Source: an uncultured delta proteobacterium
GTDB lineage: Bacteria > Desulfobacterota > Desulfobacteria > Desulfobacterales > Desulfosalsimonadaceae
Assembly: GCA_963826785.1 (NCBI GenBank)
Contig: CAWGYD010000001.1
Location: 736,001 to 800,000 of the forward strand
Direction: 5' to 3'
DNA length: 64,000 bases
Below, piece after piece: positions 10,122 through 20,803 of the stretch; the stretch's first letter is position 1; the number at the start of each line of letters is the position of its first letter. Under the pieces are notes generated by a model. That model had not been told where the DNA came from. It was given only the letters and a program-made list of their open reading frames with translations, and ran no database searches. The position numbers and the translations under genes are program-made.

Positions 10122-11361
10122 TCAACCCGTTTTTTTTTCTTTCAGGCGGATAATCACCGGCACCCCCGCGGTTTCGCACAGGCTGTCTGCCGCCCGATGA
10201 ATCAGCCGTTCCAATCCTTTTATTTCATCTGAAAATATCTGGTCGGAAACCGGAATCCACACTTCCAGGCAGCTGCGGTCATCCTGGCGGATGATGCCGC
10301 AGCGGGCGGTTTCCGGATCAATGCCGAGCAGCTGGCGCAGGCTGCTCCGGATCTGCTGCTCATGGACATTGACGCCGTCAATTGTGAACATGTCATCCGT
10401 CCGCTCCCCCGCCCATTCGATCCGGGCCAGGTCCCTGCCGCAGGGACAGGGTTGATCCATCCGCCGGGCCCGGTCTCCTGTTTTAAATCGTATCAGGGGA
10501 AAGGCACGTGTGGTCAGGGAGGTCAGGACCAGTTGGCCCCATTGTCCTTCCGGCAGGACATCTCCGGTGCCGGGATCGACGATTTCGGCCAGGAAATGGT
10601 CCTCATGGATGTGGAGCCCCCTGTGGTGTTCGCACTCGAATGCGATGGCCGGCCCGGGCACCTCTGAAAGTCCGTAGTGCATCCACACGGAAACCCGGAA
10701 CTGCGCTTCCATCATTTCGCGCGTCTGTTCATCTATGGCCTCTCCGGCAAGAATCAGGGTTTTTAAATGAAGCATGTCGAGATCCATCCGGTTTGCGCTG
10801 ATGTGCTCCAGGAGATGGCGTGCGGAGGCCGGGGTGGTGACCAGGACGGAGGTCTTGTAGTCCCGCAGGACCATCAGTTTTTTTTCTGTGGAAAGGGGGG
10901 TATTGGGGATGACGCCGGCTTCAATGCGTTCGGCCCCGTCCTTGTAGTCCCGGCCCCAGTTGGCCAGCCCGGGATTGAAGCTGATCTGCAGGATGTCATG
11001 GGGGGTGACGTTGGCGGCGGTGAGCGACCGGGCCAGGATCGATTTCCATGAAGAAAGGTCCTGCAGGGTGTACCCGCTGACGGTGGGATTGCGGGTGGTC
11101 CCGGGGGCGGTGTGGATGCGCACGATATCCCGCAGGGGAACGGCAAACAGGTCATAGGGGTAATTTTCGCTTAAGTGTTCCCGTTCCATGAAGGGGAGGG
11201 AGGCGATGTCGGACAGGTGCTCGATCCCGGAGGGGTCGATGCGCATTTCCATCAACCGATGCTGATGAAACGGGACATTGCGGTAGGCCCGGTTCAGGGT
11301 GCTCTGCAGCCGCTCCAGCTGCAGCTGCTGTTTTTCCTCCAGGTCCAGATCTAAAAAACCG

Positions 11362-11375
<14 letters not shown>
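10122..11375 (-). CDS. Phenylacetate-CoA ligase family protein (divergent paralog)
   Basis: Colinear with the PaaK at 16710 (YPYDLFAVP, YGLSE, FPLIRFKTGD) but with an altered P-loop HTAPGTT. Confidence 0.85.
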
Positions 11376-12102
<727 letters not shown>

Positions 12103-12110
12103 GGCTTAAG

Positions 12111-12884
12111 CTATTTTTTCGTTCCCAGATATGCCGCCATCACGGCCTCATTTTCCTGAATTTGCCGGGGCGGACCTTCCGCGATCTTTTTTCCCTGGTC
12201 CAGGACGACGATGGTGTCTGAAATATCCATGGTCAGGCTCATGTCATGCTCCACCAGCAGGATGGTCACGCCGCTTTCGCGGATTTTTCGGATCAGGCCG
12301 CCCAGTTTCCGGGTTTCCACCATGTTCAGCCCGGCGGCCGGTTCGTCCAGCAGCAGCAGTTCGGGCTTCGATGCCATGGCACGGGCAACCTCCAGAAGCC
12401 GCTGCCAGCCGAAGGGAAGATCGCCGCTTCTTTTATCGGCGTGGTCGGCCAGTCCGACAAAGTCCAGGTATTCGAGCGCTTTTTTCCGGGACCGGCGTTC
12501 CTCCCGGGCCACACCGGGGGGGCGCAGGATGCTTCCCCACATGCCGCAGCGGGTTTTCGTATGCTGGCCCACCAGGACGTTTTCCAGCACGGTCATGCTT
12601 TCAAACAGCTCCACGTTCTGGAAGGTCCTGGCGATGCCCAGCACAACCAGTTCATAGACTTTTTTCCGGTTGATGAGCAGTCCGTTTAAATGAATGGTGC
12701 CCTGATCAACCGGGAAGATGCCGGTAATCAGGTTAAACAGGGTGGTTTTGCCCGCACCGTTGGGGCCGATCAGCCCGGTAACGGAACCCCGGGCAATTGC
12801 AAAACTGACATCCGTCAGCGCGGCAACCCCGCCAAATGATTTGCTGACACGGCCGACGTTTAGAATTTGCGCATCAGGCGGCAT
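12111..12884 (-). CDS. livG: Branched-chain-amino-acid-type ABC transporter ATP-binding protein
   Basis: GPNGAGKTT, ARTFQN, LLLDEPAAG and VEHDM. Confidence 0.92.
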   Translation of the reverse strand: MPPDAQILNVGRVSKSFGGVAALTDVSFAIARGSVTGLIGPNGAGKTTLFNLITGIFPVDQGTIHLNGLLINRKKVYELVVLGIARTFQNVELFESMTVLENVLVGQHTKTRCGMWGSILRPPGVAREERRSRKKALEYLDFVGLADHADKRSGDLPFGWQRLLEVARAMASKPELLLLDEPAAGLNMVETRKLGGLIRKIRESGVTILLVEHDMSLTMDISDTIVVLDQGKKIAEGPPRQIQENEAVMAAYLGTKK

Positions 12885-13836
12885 GCTTTTTCACCATCCG
12901 TTCGAAAAGGTCTATGATGCCCCGGAAGAGCCCCCGGGGCATGAAAATCATCACCACCATGAGGATCAGTCCGTAGACCACCATTTCAAATTCGGAGAAC
13001 GCATGGAGCCACTCCGGCAGCAGCGTCAGAAGGGATGCGCCTAAAATCGCCCCCCAGATGCTGGCCATGCCGCCGATAACCACCATGGTGACGATGCGGA
13101 TCGAAGAGAGAAACCCGAAAGTCCCCGGGCTGATGAAGTAGACCAGGTGGGCATAGAGAAAGCCGGCCAGGGCGCTGATGGCGGCGCTGAGCACAAATAT
13201 CTGGAGTTTGAGCTGCTGGGTGTTGACGCCGACTGCGGCCGCCGCGGATTCCCCGTCATGGATGGACCGCAGCGCACGTCCCACGCGCGAATTGATGATG
13301 CGCCGGCACATGATGATGTTGAGCAGAACACATCCCCACACCAGGTAGAGGTAATTTCGAGCCGACACGAAGGAGATCGGCCCCAGTTCCAGCGGGGGGA
13401 TGCCCACGAATCCGGACGCCCCTCCGGTAACGCTGCTCCACTCCCTGAAGGCGATATTGACGATCATGCCGAAGCCGAGCGTCCCCATTCCCAGGTAGTA
13501 GCCGGACAGCTTCAGCGTGGGGATGCCGACGATGCAGGCGACCAGCATGGCCGCCAGGATGCAGGCGGGCAGCGCCAGCCAGGGGGATATGCTGTAGTGC
13601 ACCGTCAGGATGGCCGTGACATAGGCGCCGATACCATAGAAGGCGGCATGCCCCAGGGAGATCTGGCCGGCGTACCCCATGAGCATGTTGAGCGCAAGTG
13701 CCAGCAGGGTATTGATCCCGATGAAGATCAGCAACTGGATATTGTACAGATTGTCGACGAACGTACCGGTCAGCACGACAGCGAGAATAAACAGCCCGTA
13801 TCCGATCCGGATTGGCCAAACGGAATCATTTACCAA
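12874..13836 (-). CDS. livM: HAAT ABC transporter permease
   Basis: GYAGQISLGHAAFYGIGAY and VVIGGMASIWG. Confidence 0.9.
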   Translation of the reverse strand: MVNDSVWPIRIGYGLFILAVVLTGTFVDNLYNIQLLIFIGINTLLALALNMLMGYAGQISLGHAAFYGIGAYVTAILTVHYSISPWLALPACILAAMLVACIVGIPTLKLSGYYLGMGTLGFGMIVNIAFREWSSVTGGASGFVGIPPLELGPISFVSARNYLYLVWGCVLLNIIMCRRIINSRVGRALRSIHDGESAAAAVGVNTQQLKLQIFVLSAAISALAGFLYAHLVYFISPGTFGFLSSIRIVTMVVIGGMASIWGAILGASLLTLLPEWLHAFSEFEMVVYGLILMVVMIFMPRGLFRGIIDLFERMVKKHAA

Positions 13837-13854
13837 GTGCGGGGCATCCTTAAA

Positions 13855-14730
13855 TTAAAACCGGTTGACATTGGCAGAACTGATCAGTCCGCCGGGGCGG
13901 ACGTACAGGATCAGCAGCAGGAGCAGAAAGGCCGTGGCGTCCTTTAATCCCGAAGAAACCAGACCGACGCCCATGGCCTCTAAAATGCCCAGCAGAAAAC
14001 CGCCCAGCAGGGATCCCCACAGGCTGCCCAGCCCACCCAGCATGGCCGCACAAAATCCTTTGAGGCCCAGCATGGTTCCCATGTCATAGCTGGACATGGT
14101 GATGGGCGCGATGATCACCCCGGCCAGTCCCCCCAGACCGGTACTCAGGCCGAACGCGAACAGAACCATCAGTTTAGCGGGGATGCCCACGATCCATGCG
14201 GCCCGCCGGCTGATGGCGGTTGCGGTCATGGCCTTTCCGGTCAGGGTCTTTTTGAAAAACAGGTGCAGGCCGGCCGTGACGCAAAAGACGATGACCAGGA
14301 TCCAGATGCTCTGGGCCAGCAGCTTGGCGCCGGCCACATCGACGGGGGGGTGGGCGGAAAAAGGGGGGATGGTATGGGCGTCCTTTCCCCAGACCAGCAT
14401 TCCGATTCCCCGCAGAAAGATGGAGGCCCCCACCGTAATGATGATCAAGACGATGGGCTGGGGCTCTGCCACGGTCCGGATGGCCAGCCGCTCAAACACC
14501 AGCCCGGCCGCCCCCACCCCCAGTACGGTGATGAGAAGGGCGGCCGGGACCGGGAATTTAAACGCGCTGGTCAGGGTCACCATGGAAAGCGCCCCCAGCA
14601 TGACGAATTCGCCGTGGGCGAAATTGATCAGCTCGGTGGAGCGGTACAGCATGGAAAACCCGATGGCGATGACCGCGTAAATGGCGCCATTGGTGATTCC
14701 GGAAAAAAAATACTGGAGAAGTTCCTGCAT
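13855..14730 (-). CDS. livH: HAAT ABC transporter permease
   Basis: INFAHGEF and KGFCAAMLGGLGS. Confidence 0.9.
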   Translation of the reverse strand: MQELLQYFFSGITNGAIYAVIAIGFSMLYRSTELINFAHGEFVMLGALSMVTLTSAFKFPVPAALLITVLGVGAAGLVFERLAIRTVAEPQPIVLIIITVGASIFLRGIGMLVWGKDAHTIPPFSAHPPVDVAGAKLLAQSIWILVIVFCVTAGLHLFFKKTLTGKAMTATAISRRAAWIVGIPAKLMVLFAFGLSTGLGGLAGVIIAPITMSSYDMGTMLGLKGFCAAMLGGLGSLWGSLLGGFLLGILEAMGVGLVSSGLKDATAFLLLLLILYVRPGGLISSANVNRF

Positions 14731-14943: not shown

Positions 14944-16113
14944 TTATTCCACGAGTTCCCATGTGCCGTTTTTGATTCTGACCATCACGAAGGCATCCGG
15001 GCCCAGACCGTTGTGCTCTGTCTTGCTGAAATTGAAGATGCCGCTGATCCCCACGTGATGATTGATGCTTTCCAGGCCGTCGCGGATTTTCTGCTTGTCG
15101 CCGTTGCTCCCCTTCAGTGCTTTGGCCAGCAGATGGACTCCGTCATAGGCATATCCGCCGAAGCCTGAAACCGGGGTGTTGAATTTCTTTTCATAAGCGG
15201 AGATGTAATCGATGAGCACCTTCTTCTGGGGATCGCTGTCGGGCAGAAGATCGGCGACCAGGATCTTGCCGGTGGGCAGCAGGATGCCCTCGGCCGCGTC
15301 TCCGGCCAGTTCGATGAATTTCGGGGAGGCCACGCCGTGACTCTGATAGAGGGGGATCTTGATGTCGAGCTGCTGGGCGTTTTTGGCCACCACGGCCGGA
15401 CCGGGATTGGTCCCCCAGCAGACGATGGCATCCGGATTCTGCTGCCGCAGCTTGGTCAGCTGGGCGGTCATGTCCGTGTCGCTGGCGCCGAAGGTCACTT
15501 TTTCAGCGATGTTCAGCCCGAAGTCCGGGGCCTGCTTGATCAGTTGCTCACGGCCGCTTTCACCAAACGCATTTTCCACGGTGATGATGCCGACATTTTT
15601 GATGCCGGCAGACTTCATGTGGTTGTAAATAGCGGATACCGCCAGGATGTCGCTCTGGGCGGTTTTGAACACCCAGGGGTTCACCGGTTCAACGATCTTG
15701 TTGCCGGCCGCGCAGCTGACGAAGGGGATCTGGGCTCTTTCCACCATGGGTTTGACCGCAAGGGTGGTGGGGGTCAGGCTGGGGCCCACGATGGCGATGA
15801 CGCCGTCCTTGTTGATGAGCTTGCCCGCATTCAAATTGGCCTTGGCCGGATCCCCCTCGGTATCATAAATCACCGCCTCCAGCATGTGCCCGTCCACACC
15901 CCCGGCCTTATTGATTTCATCGACGGCCATTTCCATTGATTTTTTTTCCGGGTCGCCCAGAAATGAGGCCGGCCCGGTTACGGCAAAGATCCCGCCGATC
16001 ACATAGGGTTTTTTGTCGGATTCGGCGCCGGCAAAGGACACCAGCAGCATGCACAGGGCCGCGGCCAGACAGACGGCCGTCAGGAGCGGACGTAAACGGG
16101 TGTTTGAAATCAT
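14944..16113 (-). CDS. HAAT ABC transporter substrate-binding protein (LivK-like)
   Basis: Signal peptide, TGPASFLG, EINKAGGVDG and GYAYDG. Confidence 0.9.
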   Translation of the reverse strand: MISNTRLRPLLTAVCLAAALCMLLVSFAGAESDKKPYVIGGIFAVTGPASFLGDPEKKSMEMAVDEINKAGGVDGHMLEAVIYDTEGDPAKANLNAGKLINKDGVIAIVGPSLTPTTLAVKPMVERAQIPFVSCAAGNKIVEPVNPWVFKTAQSDILAVSAIYNHMKSAGIKNVGIITVENAFGESGREQLIKQAPDFGLNIAEKVTFGASDTDMTAQLTKLRQQNPDAIVCWGTNPGPAVVAKNAQQLDIKIPLYQSHGVASPKFIELAGDAAEGILLPTGKILVADLLPDSDPQKKVLIDYISAYEKKFNTPVSGFGGYAYDGVHLLAKALKGSNGDKQKIRDGLESINHHVGISGIFNFSKTEHNGLGPDAFVMVRIKNGTWELVE

Positions 16114-16209: not shown

Positions 16210-16641
16210 CTACAACGTATACAGGTTGGCGCCGTTGATCACGGATATGTTGTTGGCGGACAACACGCGGATGGCCTCGTCGGTCTGGTCGAACCTGAAG
16301 ATCATGATGGCGTTGTCCCCGCTCTGCCGGACAAACGCGTACATATATTCGACATTGATCCCGGAATTTTTGAGGGTTTCCAGAATGTTGTGGAGCCCGC
16401 CGGGGCGGTCGCTGACTTCGACGGCCACCACCTTGGTTTTTCCCACGGTAAAGCCTTCCTTCTTCAGGGCGGCTTCGGCCCTGGCATTGTCATCGACGAT
16501 CAGCCGGAGCACCCCGAAATCGGAAGTGTCCGCAAGCGCCAGTGCCCGGATGTTCACGCCGGCCTGCGCAAGAATGCCGGTGACTTCGGACAGGCGCCCG
16601 GCCCTGTTTTCGAGAAAAATGGAGATTTGTTCCGCTTGCAT
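16210..16641 (-). CDS. Double ACT-domain protein (PaaK-associated)
   Basis: QISIFLENRAGRL, DRPGGL and INVEYMYAF. Confidence 0.88.
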   Translation of the reverse strand: MQAEQISIFLENRAGRLSEVTGILAQAGVNIRALALADTSDFGVLRLIVDDNARAEAALKKEGFTVGKTKVVAVEVSDRPGGLHNILETLKNSGINVEYMYAFVRQSGDNAIMIFRFDQTDEAIRVLSANNISVINGANLYTL

Positions 16642-16709: not shown

Positions 16710-18011
16710 TCAGATCTTGCGATTATCGATCACCCGGGCGGCTTTCCCTTCGCTTCGGGCGATGGTCTTGGGTTCAACCAGTTTGATTCTGGCGGAGACG
16801 CCCAGGGTTTCCTTGATGTCATACTCGATGCGCTTCTCGAAATCCTGCAGTTTCTTGACTTCGTCCGAGAACAGATGTTCCCCCACCTCCACCCGCACGG
16901 TGAGCGTGTCGAGATTGTCATGGCGGTCCACGATAATCTGGTAATGGGGTTCCACTCCCTCGATCTGCATGAGCACGGATTCAATCTGGGACGGAAAGAC
17001 ATTGACCCCCCGGATGATGAGCATGTCATCGGTGCGGCCGCTGACCTTGTCCATCCGGACCAGGGTCCTGCCGCAGACACAGGGCTCCGGATTGAGGACG
17101 GTAATGTCCCGGGTGCGGTAGCGGATCACCGGGAATGCCTCCTTGGTCAGAGAGGTGATCACCAGTTCCCCCTTTTCACCATAGGGGAGGGGGGTTCCGG
17201 TAACCGGATCGATAATCTCCGGCAGAAAATGATCCTCGAACATGTGCAGACCCCGTTTGGCCTCATGGCATTCCACGGAGACGCCCGGGCCGATCACTTC
17301 GCTGAGCCCGTAGATATCGATGGCATTCATGTGAAGCTTGCGTTCGATCTCCGCACGCATATCCTCGGACCAGGGTTCGGCCCCGAAAATGCCGCACTTG
17401 AATTTCAGGTCCGCAAAGGAAACCCCCATCTCATCGGCCGCTTCGGCCAGGTGGAGGGAATAGGAGGGCGTGGCGGTGAGCACGGTGGGGCCGAAATCCT
17501 TCATGATGATCACCTGGCGCTTGGTATTGCCGCCGGACACGGGAATGACCGAGGCGCCGAGTCTTTCAGCGCCGTAATGCACCCCTAGTCCGCCGGTGAA
17601 CAGCCCGTAGCCATAGGCATTGTGGATGATATCCCCCCGGGTTGCGCCGCCCGAGGAAAGGGCCCTTGCCATGAGCTCGGCCCAGGTATTGATGTCGCGG
17701 GCCGTGTAGCCCACCACCGTCGGCTGCCCGGTGGTGCCGGAGGAAGCATGGATGCGGACCACGTTGTCCATGGGAACGGCGAACATGCCATAGGGGTAGT
17801 TGTCTCTCAGGTCCTGCTTGGTGGTGAAGGGGACGCTTTTAAGATCGCCCAGGGTCCGGATGTCGCCTGGACGGATGCCCCCCTTTTCGAACTGCTTCCG
17901 ATAGAAGGGCACGGTGGCGTAAACCCGGGACAAAGTCGCCTGCAGGCGCTTTAATTGTATGGCCTCAAGGGCTTCCCTGGGCATGGTTTCGTATTCGAGA
18001 TTGAAAATCAT
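16710..18011 (-). CDS. paaK: Phenylacetate-CoA ligase
   Basis: [27 protein letters not shown] and [16 protein letters not shown]. Confidence 0.93.
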
Positions 18012-18047: not shown

Positions 18048-18087
18048 AAAAAAAGGGCCGTGCGGTCATATCGACCCCACGGCCCTT
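18048..18087 (-). terminator. Intrinsic terminator (attenuator) in the paaK leader
   Basis: Minus strand reads AGGGCCGTGGGGTC-GATAT-GACCGCACGGCCC followed by T7. Confidence 0.85.
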
Positions 18088-18178
18088 GAAAAATGCAACC
18101 ATGGGGCGCAATTGAGCCGTCTCCCCATGGGTATAATCAGAAAATCCTTCTTTGTTCTAAATCCGATCCATGGGAAGA

Positions 18179-18235
18179 CTATTGAAAAAAGAAACCGTTC
18201 CCGGAGATCGAAAATCCCGTGTTCATCCGATTCAT
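18179..18235 (-). CDS. Phe-rich attenuation leader peptide MNRMNTGFSISGNGFFFQ
   Basis: 18 codons with 4 Phe (three in tandem) just before alternative hairpins and a terminator. TTGACA lies upstream at 18306-18301. Confidence 0.75.
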   Translation of the reverse strand: MNRMNTGFSISGNGFFFQ

Positions 18236-18460
18236 CTGCTTAGTATCGCCATAGAATGATTCATTAAAGTTTTTATGGCATAAACCGTAACGCGCTTGTC
18301 TGTCAAGAAAAAAAACATTATGCGTTGCCCTTCAAACCCTCATCCAAAGACTGCCGGGAGGGCTGCAGGCCGCTTCGGATGCGCAAACACGGGCGGTATA
18401 ATGCGCTTTTTCCCCGGCCTGCTTCGTGACGCTGTACTATCCGGAATTTCTAATCCATTT

Positions 18461-19252
18461 CTATCCGTTTAGCTTTCCTTTGAATTCGGGCTTCCTTTTT
18501 TCCAGAAAGGCGCTGGTGCCTTCCCTGGCGTCTTCACTGGCCATGCACAGGGAAAAAGCGTCAATTTCCATGTCACAGGCCGTTTTTAGATCAACATTCA
18601 GTCCATTGTTGATGGCCTGCTTTGCCGCATTGAGAGAGACCCGGCCCTTGGCGGCGATGGTTTGGGCCGTTTTGACCGATTCGGCCATCAACTGGTCGGG
18701 CGCGAAGACCTGGTTGACGATGCCTGCCCGAAAAGCCTCTTCTGCGGACAGGTGTTTACCGGTAAAGATCAGTTCTTTGGCCATATTTTTTCCTATGATC
18801 CGGGCCAGCCGCTGGGTGCCGCCGAATCCGGGAATGATCCCCAGGTTGATTTCGGGAAGGCCGAACCGGGCATTTTCCGATGCGTAGATGAAGTCGCAGG
18901 ACAGGGCCAGTTCAAGCCCGCCCCCCAGGGCAAATCCGTTGACGGCGGCAATCACCGGGATGGGCAGCTGCTGAAGCCTGTTCATGGCCCGATGGCCGTT
19001 TTGCGCAAATTGCCTGGCTTGCAGGGTGTTGAGCCGGTTGAGTTCGGTGATGTCCGCCCCGGCCACAAAGGCCTTTTCCCCCGCGCCGGTAATGATCATC
19101 ACCTTTATATCCGGGTGCTTTTCAATCTGTTCGAATGCATCATAGAGTTCTTCTATCACCTGGGTATTGAGTGCATTGAGTGATTTCGGACGGTTCACCG
19201 TAATAGTGGCAATGGATTGATCCTCAACCATCAAGATGTGTTCAAATGGCAT
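18461..19252 (-). CDS. Enoyl-CoA hydratase (crotonase family)
   Basis: AFVAGADI, GFALGGGLELAL and PEINLGIIPGFGGTQRL. Confidence 0.92.
   Translation of the reverse strand: MPFEHILMVEDQSIATITVNRPKSLNALNTQVIEELYDAFEQIEKHPDIKVMIITGAGEKAFVAGADITELNRLNTLQARQFAQNGHRAMNRLQQLPIPVIAAVNGFALGGGLELALSCDFIYASENARFGLPEINLGIIPGFGGTQRLARIIGKNMAKELIFTGKHLSAEEAFRAGIVNQVFAPDQLMAESVKTAQTIAAKGRVSLNAAKQAINNGLNVDLKTACDMEIDAFSLCMASEDAREGTSAFLEKRKPEFKGKLNG

Positions 19253-20726: not shown

Positions 20727-20803
<77 letters not shown>

Follow-up and report, generated by a model that had tools for sequence, protein, structure and literature searches.

An RNA leader upstream of a paaK-like gene in an uncultured delta proteobacterium is, with high confidence, a real and conserved attenuator for phenylalanine (or phenylalanine and tyrosine). 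We further judge it probable that this attenuator opens the paaK-ACT-ABC importer operon to transcription at low levels of charged tRNA-Phe, and that the operon serves to build phenylalanine from scavenged phenylacetate-type acids. The switch would follow the classical attenuation scheme; its six-segment family, found here on a paaK operon, is not part of Rfam 15. The window, as the term is used below, is the whole stretch of 64,000 nt that was analysed, and every feature given for it lies on its minus strand.

The predicted -35 box of the leader promoter, TTGACA, lies at 18301..18306, while the -10 region (about 18283-18277) matches its consensus poorly. Among relatives, TTGAC[AT] is conserved and sits 99-223 nt upstream of the first pairing segment of the initial annotation, S1, in all 30 copies with enough sequence. 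The leader uORF at 18179..18235, when cut and translated, gives MNRMNTGFSISGNGFFFQ* as that annotation had claimed, in a frame which relatives conserve. It holds a second in-frame ATG at 18226, one Phe codon at 18214-18212 and three tandem Phe codons, TTC TTT TTT (codons 15-17), at 18185..18193. No strong Shine-Dalgarno sequence is clear before it. A further short ORF, MNHSMAILSR* (window 18232-18264), has a stop which overlaps the uORF start (ATGA) and, given the weak Shine-Dalgarno sequence, could aid initiation there.

Downstream of the Phe codons, the five segments named S1 to S5 agree with the minus strand letter for letter, and the four pairings proposed for them are all possible, with local fold energies of -20.0 (S1:S2), -15.5 (S2:S3), -18.1 (S3:S4) and -29.0 kcal/mol (S4:S5). 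The description of a complete five-segment attenuator was nonetheless an undercount, as an overlooked sixth segment, A (18193..18202), lies inside the uORF and pairs with S1 across the family. We therefore letter the segments from A, with B (18168..18179), C (18119..18130) and D (18099..18106) standing for S1, S2 and S3. Segment E (S4, 18073..18087) is the 5' arm of the terminator as well as the antiterminator partner of D, and F (S5, 18053..18067) is the 3' arm. The T7 tract of this intrinsic terminator, at 18048..18054, takes the last base of S5 as its first T and lies some 36 nt upstream of the paaK start. Translational control of paaK was considered and ruled out, the terminator ending about 30 nt upstream of the paaK ribosome site.

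Taken alone, the window copy is only suggestive, for three reasons. Firstly, the 241-nt leader folds with a modest z of -2.43, and 3 of 200 shuffles fold equally well. Secondly, Rfam 15 at gathering level places no leader family in the window, its sole match there being a tRNA gene (20730-20803), and none of the seven weak matches at E<=10 is a leader family; the leader does not reach the gathering threshold of the Phe family, which is the pheL attenuator, or of the His and Trp families. Thirdly, a strict scan for promoter and terminator patterns returned nothing at the leader, which has a long loop, an internal mismatch and a non-consensus -10 region. What lifts the leader above chance is conservation, seen at paaK loci, in the covariation of four helices and in a kept reading frame.

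The initial annotation had suggested that conserved Phe-rich uORFs be sought before paaK in this phylum, and they are present. In a sample of 80 loci with a PaaK orthologue, mostly from Desulfobacterales, the element lies directly upstream of the orthologue in 37 and is missing from the other 43; 30 of the 37 were selected with a short motif, the profile built on these 30 then added seven more, and a search with this profile revealed no further full copy elsewhere within the 80 loci. One locus, L005, carries only a TTGACA promoter-like site followed by a terminator-like hairpin before paaK (L005:5750-5850), and the uORF and segments A to D are absent from it. A metagenome scan started from the motif instead of the gene, with a pattern that constrained the final T run together with portions of S1 and S2 but left the ATG and the codons upstream free. 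Among the 63 loci obtained, the downstream gene was paaK in 57, an ABC binding protein in three and nothing identifiable in three, these last being two contig ends and one antisense match. An in-frame ATG was found in 59 of the 61 loci with enough upstream sequence, and the 36 distinct leader peptides hold 3-12 Phe codons each, with Tyr codons in 29 and Trp codons in none.

The reading frame was analysed in an alignment of 31 de-duplicated rows, namely the window copy and 30 of the 37 loci, from which near-duplicates and the truncated L065 were excluded; the frame was set by RNA segment B, not by the ORF. An open in-frame ATG occurs in 28 of the 31 copies, against 5 and 2 in the other frames, and the frames hold 48, 18 and 5 TTC codons, 28, 5 and 6 Tyr codons and 6, 25 and 35 stops. 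Relatives carry 3-10 Phe codons, often with Tyr codons, and the window copy has four. Non-conservation of the tandem Phe codons had been named in advance as a finding that would tell against attenuation; the Phe-rich frame is kept across the 31 copies. These figures bear on a reading to which we give very little credence, in which the operon is catabolic and the leader either induces at plentiful Phe, by a TnaC-like logic, or owes its Phe run to a U-rich RNA element. A U-rich run does yield some Phe codons in any frame, as is apparent from TTT (138, 82 and 100 occurrences per frame), but the bias of ATG, TTC, Tyr codons and stops towards one frame indicates that the Phe run is a coding feature and not a mere U-rich stretch.

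Both sets of helices required by the proposed switch are maintained in the same 31 copies. In the read-through state (B:C with D:E), 93% of cells are paired and 8 of 20 pairs have changed on both sides; in the termination state (C:D with E:F), the figures are 90% and 12 of 20. By helix, such two-sided changes affect 5 of 12 pairs in B:C, 3 of 8 in D:E, 5 of 10 in C:D and 7 of 10 in E:F. The antiterminator D:E, 88% paired, shares segment E with the terminator E:F, and the two are mutually exclusive. Slid controls drop to 27-56%, and none of 500 shuffles reaches the observed paired fraction or covariation score, although such counts are not probabilities since the sequences are related and the structure was taken from the window copy. 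A U-rich stretch 3' of C:D, with 6 U of 9 in the window copy and 6-8 of 9 in most relatives, may together with this helix form a first terminator or a pause.

The A:B hairpin, the stem and loop of which contain the Phe run, is the minimum free energy structure of its stretch in almost every one of the 31 copies. In 24 of them its best register is either 15 or 18 nt, values one codon apart, and 23 of 29 copies form it when no ribosome is present. It beats shuffled controls at p<0.05 in just 8 of 31, and is weakest of all in the window copy (-4.7 kcal/mol). In the A-F scheme of the his leader, A:B, C:D and E:F terminate while B:C and D:E allow read-through. The paaK leader has this his-type six-segment topology, with an A segment in the uORF that pairs with B, weakly so in the window copy. 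It resembles the his operon leader of Salmonella and E. coli, the general mechanism of which is described in PMC3896937, in its chain of mutually exclusive helices, and differs from it in that Phe (and Tyr) would be sensed and that C:D with its U-rich tract may be a second terminator.

The resulting model is one of starvation-dependent read-through. When Phe is ample, the ribosome would reach the stop, in the window copy, or run through B, in most relatives, and so mask B; C:D would then form, E would stay free and E:F would terminate transcription. When Phe is short, the ribosome would stall on the Phe run, cover A and leave B free, so that B:C, followed by D:E, can fold and RNA polymerase continues into the operon. 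The assignment of S1:S2 plus S3:S4 to read-through and of S2:S3 plus S4:S5 to termination, made in the initial annotation, draws support from frame conservation, covariation and the folding of the family. The idea that a ribosome at the stop masks S1 applies to the window copy and three others of 29, in which the uORF stop falls right before B; in the other 25 it falls 9-37 nt after the start of B, and the ribosome thus translates into or through that segment.

Folding with and without S1 masked, as had been proposed, was performed on 29 copies, leaving out L035, the ORF of which runs into C, and L051, in which no start was found. The ribosome mask extended up to 13 nt past the P site, and equilibrium was taken just before F is made. 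Masking switches the fold from D:E to C:D in 27 of the 29 copies, the exceptions being L046 and the window copy itself. In the latter, D:E is at least as stable as C:D, and at equilibrium S3:S4 (D:E) still wins with S1 masked once S4 exists, so that termination relies on C:D forming first. Stepwise folding with a stop-bound ribosome has C:D present from 18095 to 18080, and conversion of C:D into D:E must overcome a barrier of 11.4 kcal/mol, whereas closure of the terminator requires 2.7 kcal/mol from C:D and 7.5 kcal/mol from B:C plus D:E. As E:F is the final fold of greatest stability under all scenarios, read-through must likewise be kinetic. Only two codons separate the last Phe from the stop in the window uORF, and the ribosome footprints of the two states consequently differ by just 6-12 nt. 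On paper, then, the modelled switch of the window copy works only kinetically, and this copy may be leakier than its relatives.

Such features could also mean that the family works while the window copy has degenerated and is now leaky or close to constitutive, mostly read through or, if the uORF is poorly translated, mostly terminated. We consider this improbable. It would account for the weakest A:B of the family, for a D:E no less stable than C:D and for a ribosome-free fold in which B:C forms and which, unlike that of most relatives, is the read-through one; a weak first U tract, few Phe codons and a weak Shine-Dalgarno sequence would fit as well, and decayed copies are known among relatives (L003, L005 and L035). 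Yet all 12 B:C, 8 D:E, 8 core C:D and 10 E:F pairs are intact, the ATG, tandem Phe codons and stop are placed as in L004, L016 and L033, and the barrier that protects C:D far exceeds the cost of closing the terminator from it. Overall, the leader fits a classical ribosome-mediated attenuator in its conserved tandem-codon uORF, its intrinsic terminator and its exclusive antiterminator; in silico, the position of the ribosome would select read-through on starvation in 27 of 29 copies at equilibrium, and in the window copy only through the order of folding.

The same type of leader recurs elsewhere in this genome and phylum. A covariance model built from the 31-copy alignment matches only four sites in the genome (G000), the paaK leader and three leaders of aromatic amino acid biosynthesis, all three on the minus strand: a Phe-rich leader before a DAHP synthase-prephenate dehydratase (G000:C5:200160-200400), a WWW (Trp) leader before anthranilate synthase (G000:C5:294660-294890) and a Tyr-rich leader before an operon of aldolase and DHQ synthase II (G000:C9:17017-17235). 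The Phe and Trp leaders each contain two tandem terminator-like hairpins, and a 96-aa ORF, which presumably resembles a GIY-YIG nuclease, lies between the Trp leader and trpE (G000:C5:294022-294660, minus strand). A WW leader is also seen before a second DAHP synthase (G000:C3:213130-213340, minus strand); the gene behind it (G000:C3:212131-213110, minus strand) has a frame change near codon 36, a pseudogene or an assembly error. That the model's other sites precede aromatic amino acid biosynthesis operons places paaK in a biosynthetic regulon, and the same architecture before aroF-pheA, trpE and the AroA'-like operon of this genome lends sequence-level support to Phe-sensing, ribosome-mediated attenuation, as initially put forward.

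Across the phylum, the model finds matches in 72 of 151 sampled genomes. The best 29 non-self matches precede DAHP synthase (12), an AroA'-like aldolase (7; a label inferred from Pfam DeoC and context), class I/II aminotransferase (3), PaaK (2), ABC binding protein (2), a PLP enzyme behind a WWW leader (1) and unassigned proteins (2). An aromatic-rich ATG uORF accompanies 27 of these 29, the best such ORF having been picked by script. Phe/Tyr-rich leaders stand before class I/II aminotransferases in L177, L180 and L181, which are candidates for the aromatic aminotransferase of the phylum; an aminotransferase of this genome (G000:C4:174153-175328, minus strand) is 53% identical to a leader-controlled one. 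Phe-rich leaders also stand directly before a binding protein 67% identical to that of the window in L106, L133 and L143, before a PF13458 binding protein in L171 and L179 and before an unassigned protein in L168.

The first gene under the predicted control (16710..18011) encodes a PaaK-like AMP-forming aryl-CoA ligase of 433 aa. It matches TIGR02155 with 619.7 bits over 8-431, below the curated cut-off of 646.3, and is therefore called PaaK-like and not an equivalog; its best PDB matches are the phenylacetate-CoA ligases 2Y27 (E 1.5e-151), 2Y4O and 4R1L. Behind it follow an ACT-domain-pair protein (16210..16641; PF19571, with PDB 2F06 as the sole match at E<=1e-6), an ABC substrate-binding protein (14944..16113; PF13458) nearest to aromatic-acid binders, and LivH-, LivM-, LivG- and LivF-like permeases and ATPases spanning 11362..14730 (13855-14730, 12874-13836, 12111-12884 and 11362-12102). 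With the binding protein, these components make up a LivKHMGF-like ABC importer. At 10122..11375 a further PaaK-like protein is encoded, divergent from the first (41% identity) and uncertain in its start codon. The fold neighbours of the binding protein (model with mean pLDDT 95) include complexes with p-coumarate (4F8J), 3-phenylpyruvate (4DQD) and caffeate, and aromatic-acid binders rank above Leu/Ile/Val binders among them, at 27-29% identity. Upstream of the leader lies a crotonase gene (18461-19252), which is syntenic with paaK in 55 of the 80 loci; where the leader is missing, the two genes adjoin in many cases, which suggests co-transcription.

Making Phe from imported phenylacetate-type acids is the function that we consider most likely for this operon, given that the genome has IorAB and no ring-cleavage marker. 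In the proposed route, the importer would take up an aryl acid and PaaK would activate it to the CoA ester; IorAB would reductively carboxylate the ester to phenylpyruvate, transamination would yield Phe, and the ACT protein would add feedback control. An AMP-forming ligase favours the direction of activation. IorA (above cut-off), IorB and an aminotransferase homologue are all encoded in the genome, and a search of this assembly, 88% complete, for genes of ring attack found no Oah/BamA above cut-off and no PaaA; missing markers are not proof of absence where genomes are incomplete. Among the 37 leader-bearing genomes, Oah occurs in one and IorA in 34. IorA is equally common in the leaderless paaK genomes used as a control (40 of 43), and so travels with the PaaK clade and not with the leader. 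Methanogens are reported to take phenylacetate into their metabolism with phenylacetyl-CoA ligase and Ior, the step being a reductive carboxylation (PMC6737245, PMC4162585), and rumen microbes to make Phe from phenylacetate (PMC7356843).

The usual annotation of PaaK as catabolic speaks for the catabolic reading introduced above, in which a TnaC-like leader induces. Against it, a ribosome that translates as far as B or through it promotes the terminator and not the antiterminator, the other sites of the covariance model in the genome all belong to biosynthetic aromatic operons, and neither Oah nor PaaA was detected there. Compared with the catabolic PaaK (TIGR02155) of the aerobic paa and anaerobic benzoyl-CoA pathways, the ligase is a close relative in sequence, yet it falls below the cut-off, occurs without PaaA or Oah in the genome and is predicted to be Phe-repressed.

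A different doubt concerns the substrate. The attenuator could be real and Phe-repressed while the operon handles other aryl acids (phenylpyruvate, hydroxyphenylacetate, cinnamates) or Phe itself, with no flux from PaaK to Ior; we think this unlikely. The p-coumarate, caffeate and phenylpyruvate complexes near the binding protein would be expected under it, as would the Tyr codons in 29 of 36 metagenome peptides, the three loci in which the leader directly precedes a binding protein and the score of PaaK below the TIGR02155 cut-off. So would the position of iorAB, which is unlinked to the paaK operon and not co-regulated with it in this genome, no leader being seen before iorA; the third paaK-like gene of the genome likewise shows none. 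Salvage to Phe is nevertheless favoured by the place of paaK as first gene in 57 of the 63 motif-first loci, by solved relatives of PaaK which are phenylacetate-CoA ligases, and by the adjacency of iorAB to paaK in other lineages: of the 80 loci, four, none of which has the leader, carry iorB immediately upstream of paaK, three of them together with iorA.

Several known systems resemble parts of this one. Like pheL-pheA of Gammaproteobacteria, as covered in the consulted portion of PMC3082878, the paaK leader has a short uORF with a Phe run, alternative antiterminator and terminator structures, a U tract and, by prediction, read-through on Phe limitation. It differs from the 1:2, 2:3, 3:4 scheme given there for pheL in having two more segments, six and not four; for Desulfobacterium autotrophicum, a possible pheL upstream of pheA is mentioned in the same source (PMC3082878). 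The paaK leader also departs from pheL-pheA in that its Phe run occupies the end of segment A while its ORF usually extends through B, and in that it controls an operon of aryl-CoA ligase and importer, not pheA, and has no Rfam match. The work of Lopatovskaya et al. (2010) is said to cover attenuators in delta-proteobacteria and may list some aro, phe or trp leaders. As for an attenuator before paaK, we found no description in the openly readable literature, and the accessible parts of PMC11304471, PMC2700814 and PMC4833913 hold nothing on it. The aryl-acid route of methanogens and rumen bacteria shares a PaaK-like ligase, IorAB and an aminotransferase, going by extracts of the reports (PMC6737245, PMC4162585, PMC7356843). 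In the Desulfobacterota considered here, the de novo pathway is present as well, and the enzyme set comes with its own importer and with a leader-peptide attenuator, a form of regulation which we did not find in the literature searched.

We lean slightly towards a broader view, namely that uncatalogued six-segment and possibly double-terminator aromatic attenuators extend throughout the Desulfobacterota, and that their targets trace a complete route of aryl-acid salvage (importer, PaaK-ACT, IorAB and aminotransferase) regulated as biosynthesis. If this is true, a family absent from Rfam 15 is gained, the switching principle itself being that of textbooks, and the leader reveals a direction of the pathway which annotation hides, with genes of "phenylacetate catabolism" placed under the type of control used for amino acid biosynthesis. 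An anabolic role would follow for many paaK genes of sediment anaerobes that are now labelled "catabolic": their hosts would make Phe and Tyr by adding CO2 to phenylacetate and hydroxyphenylacetate taken up from their surroundings. Metabolic reconstructions of sulfate reducers, where paaK and ior are often read as degradation of aromatics or peptides, would be corrected, and the cross-feeding of aryl acids in sediments would become directly testable.
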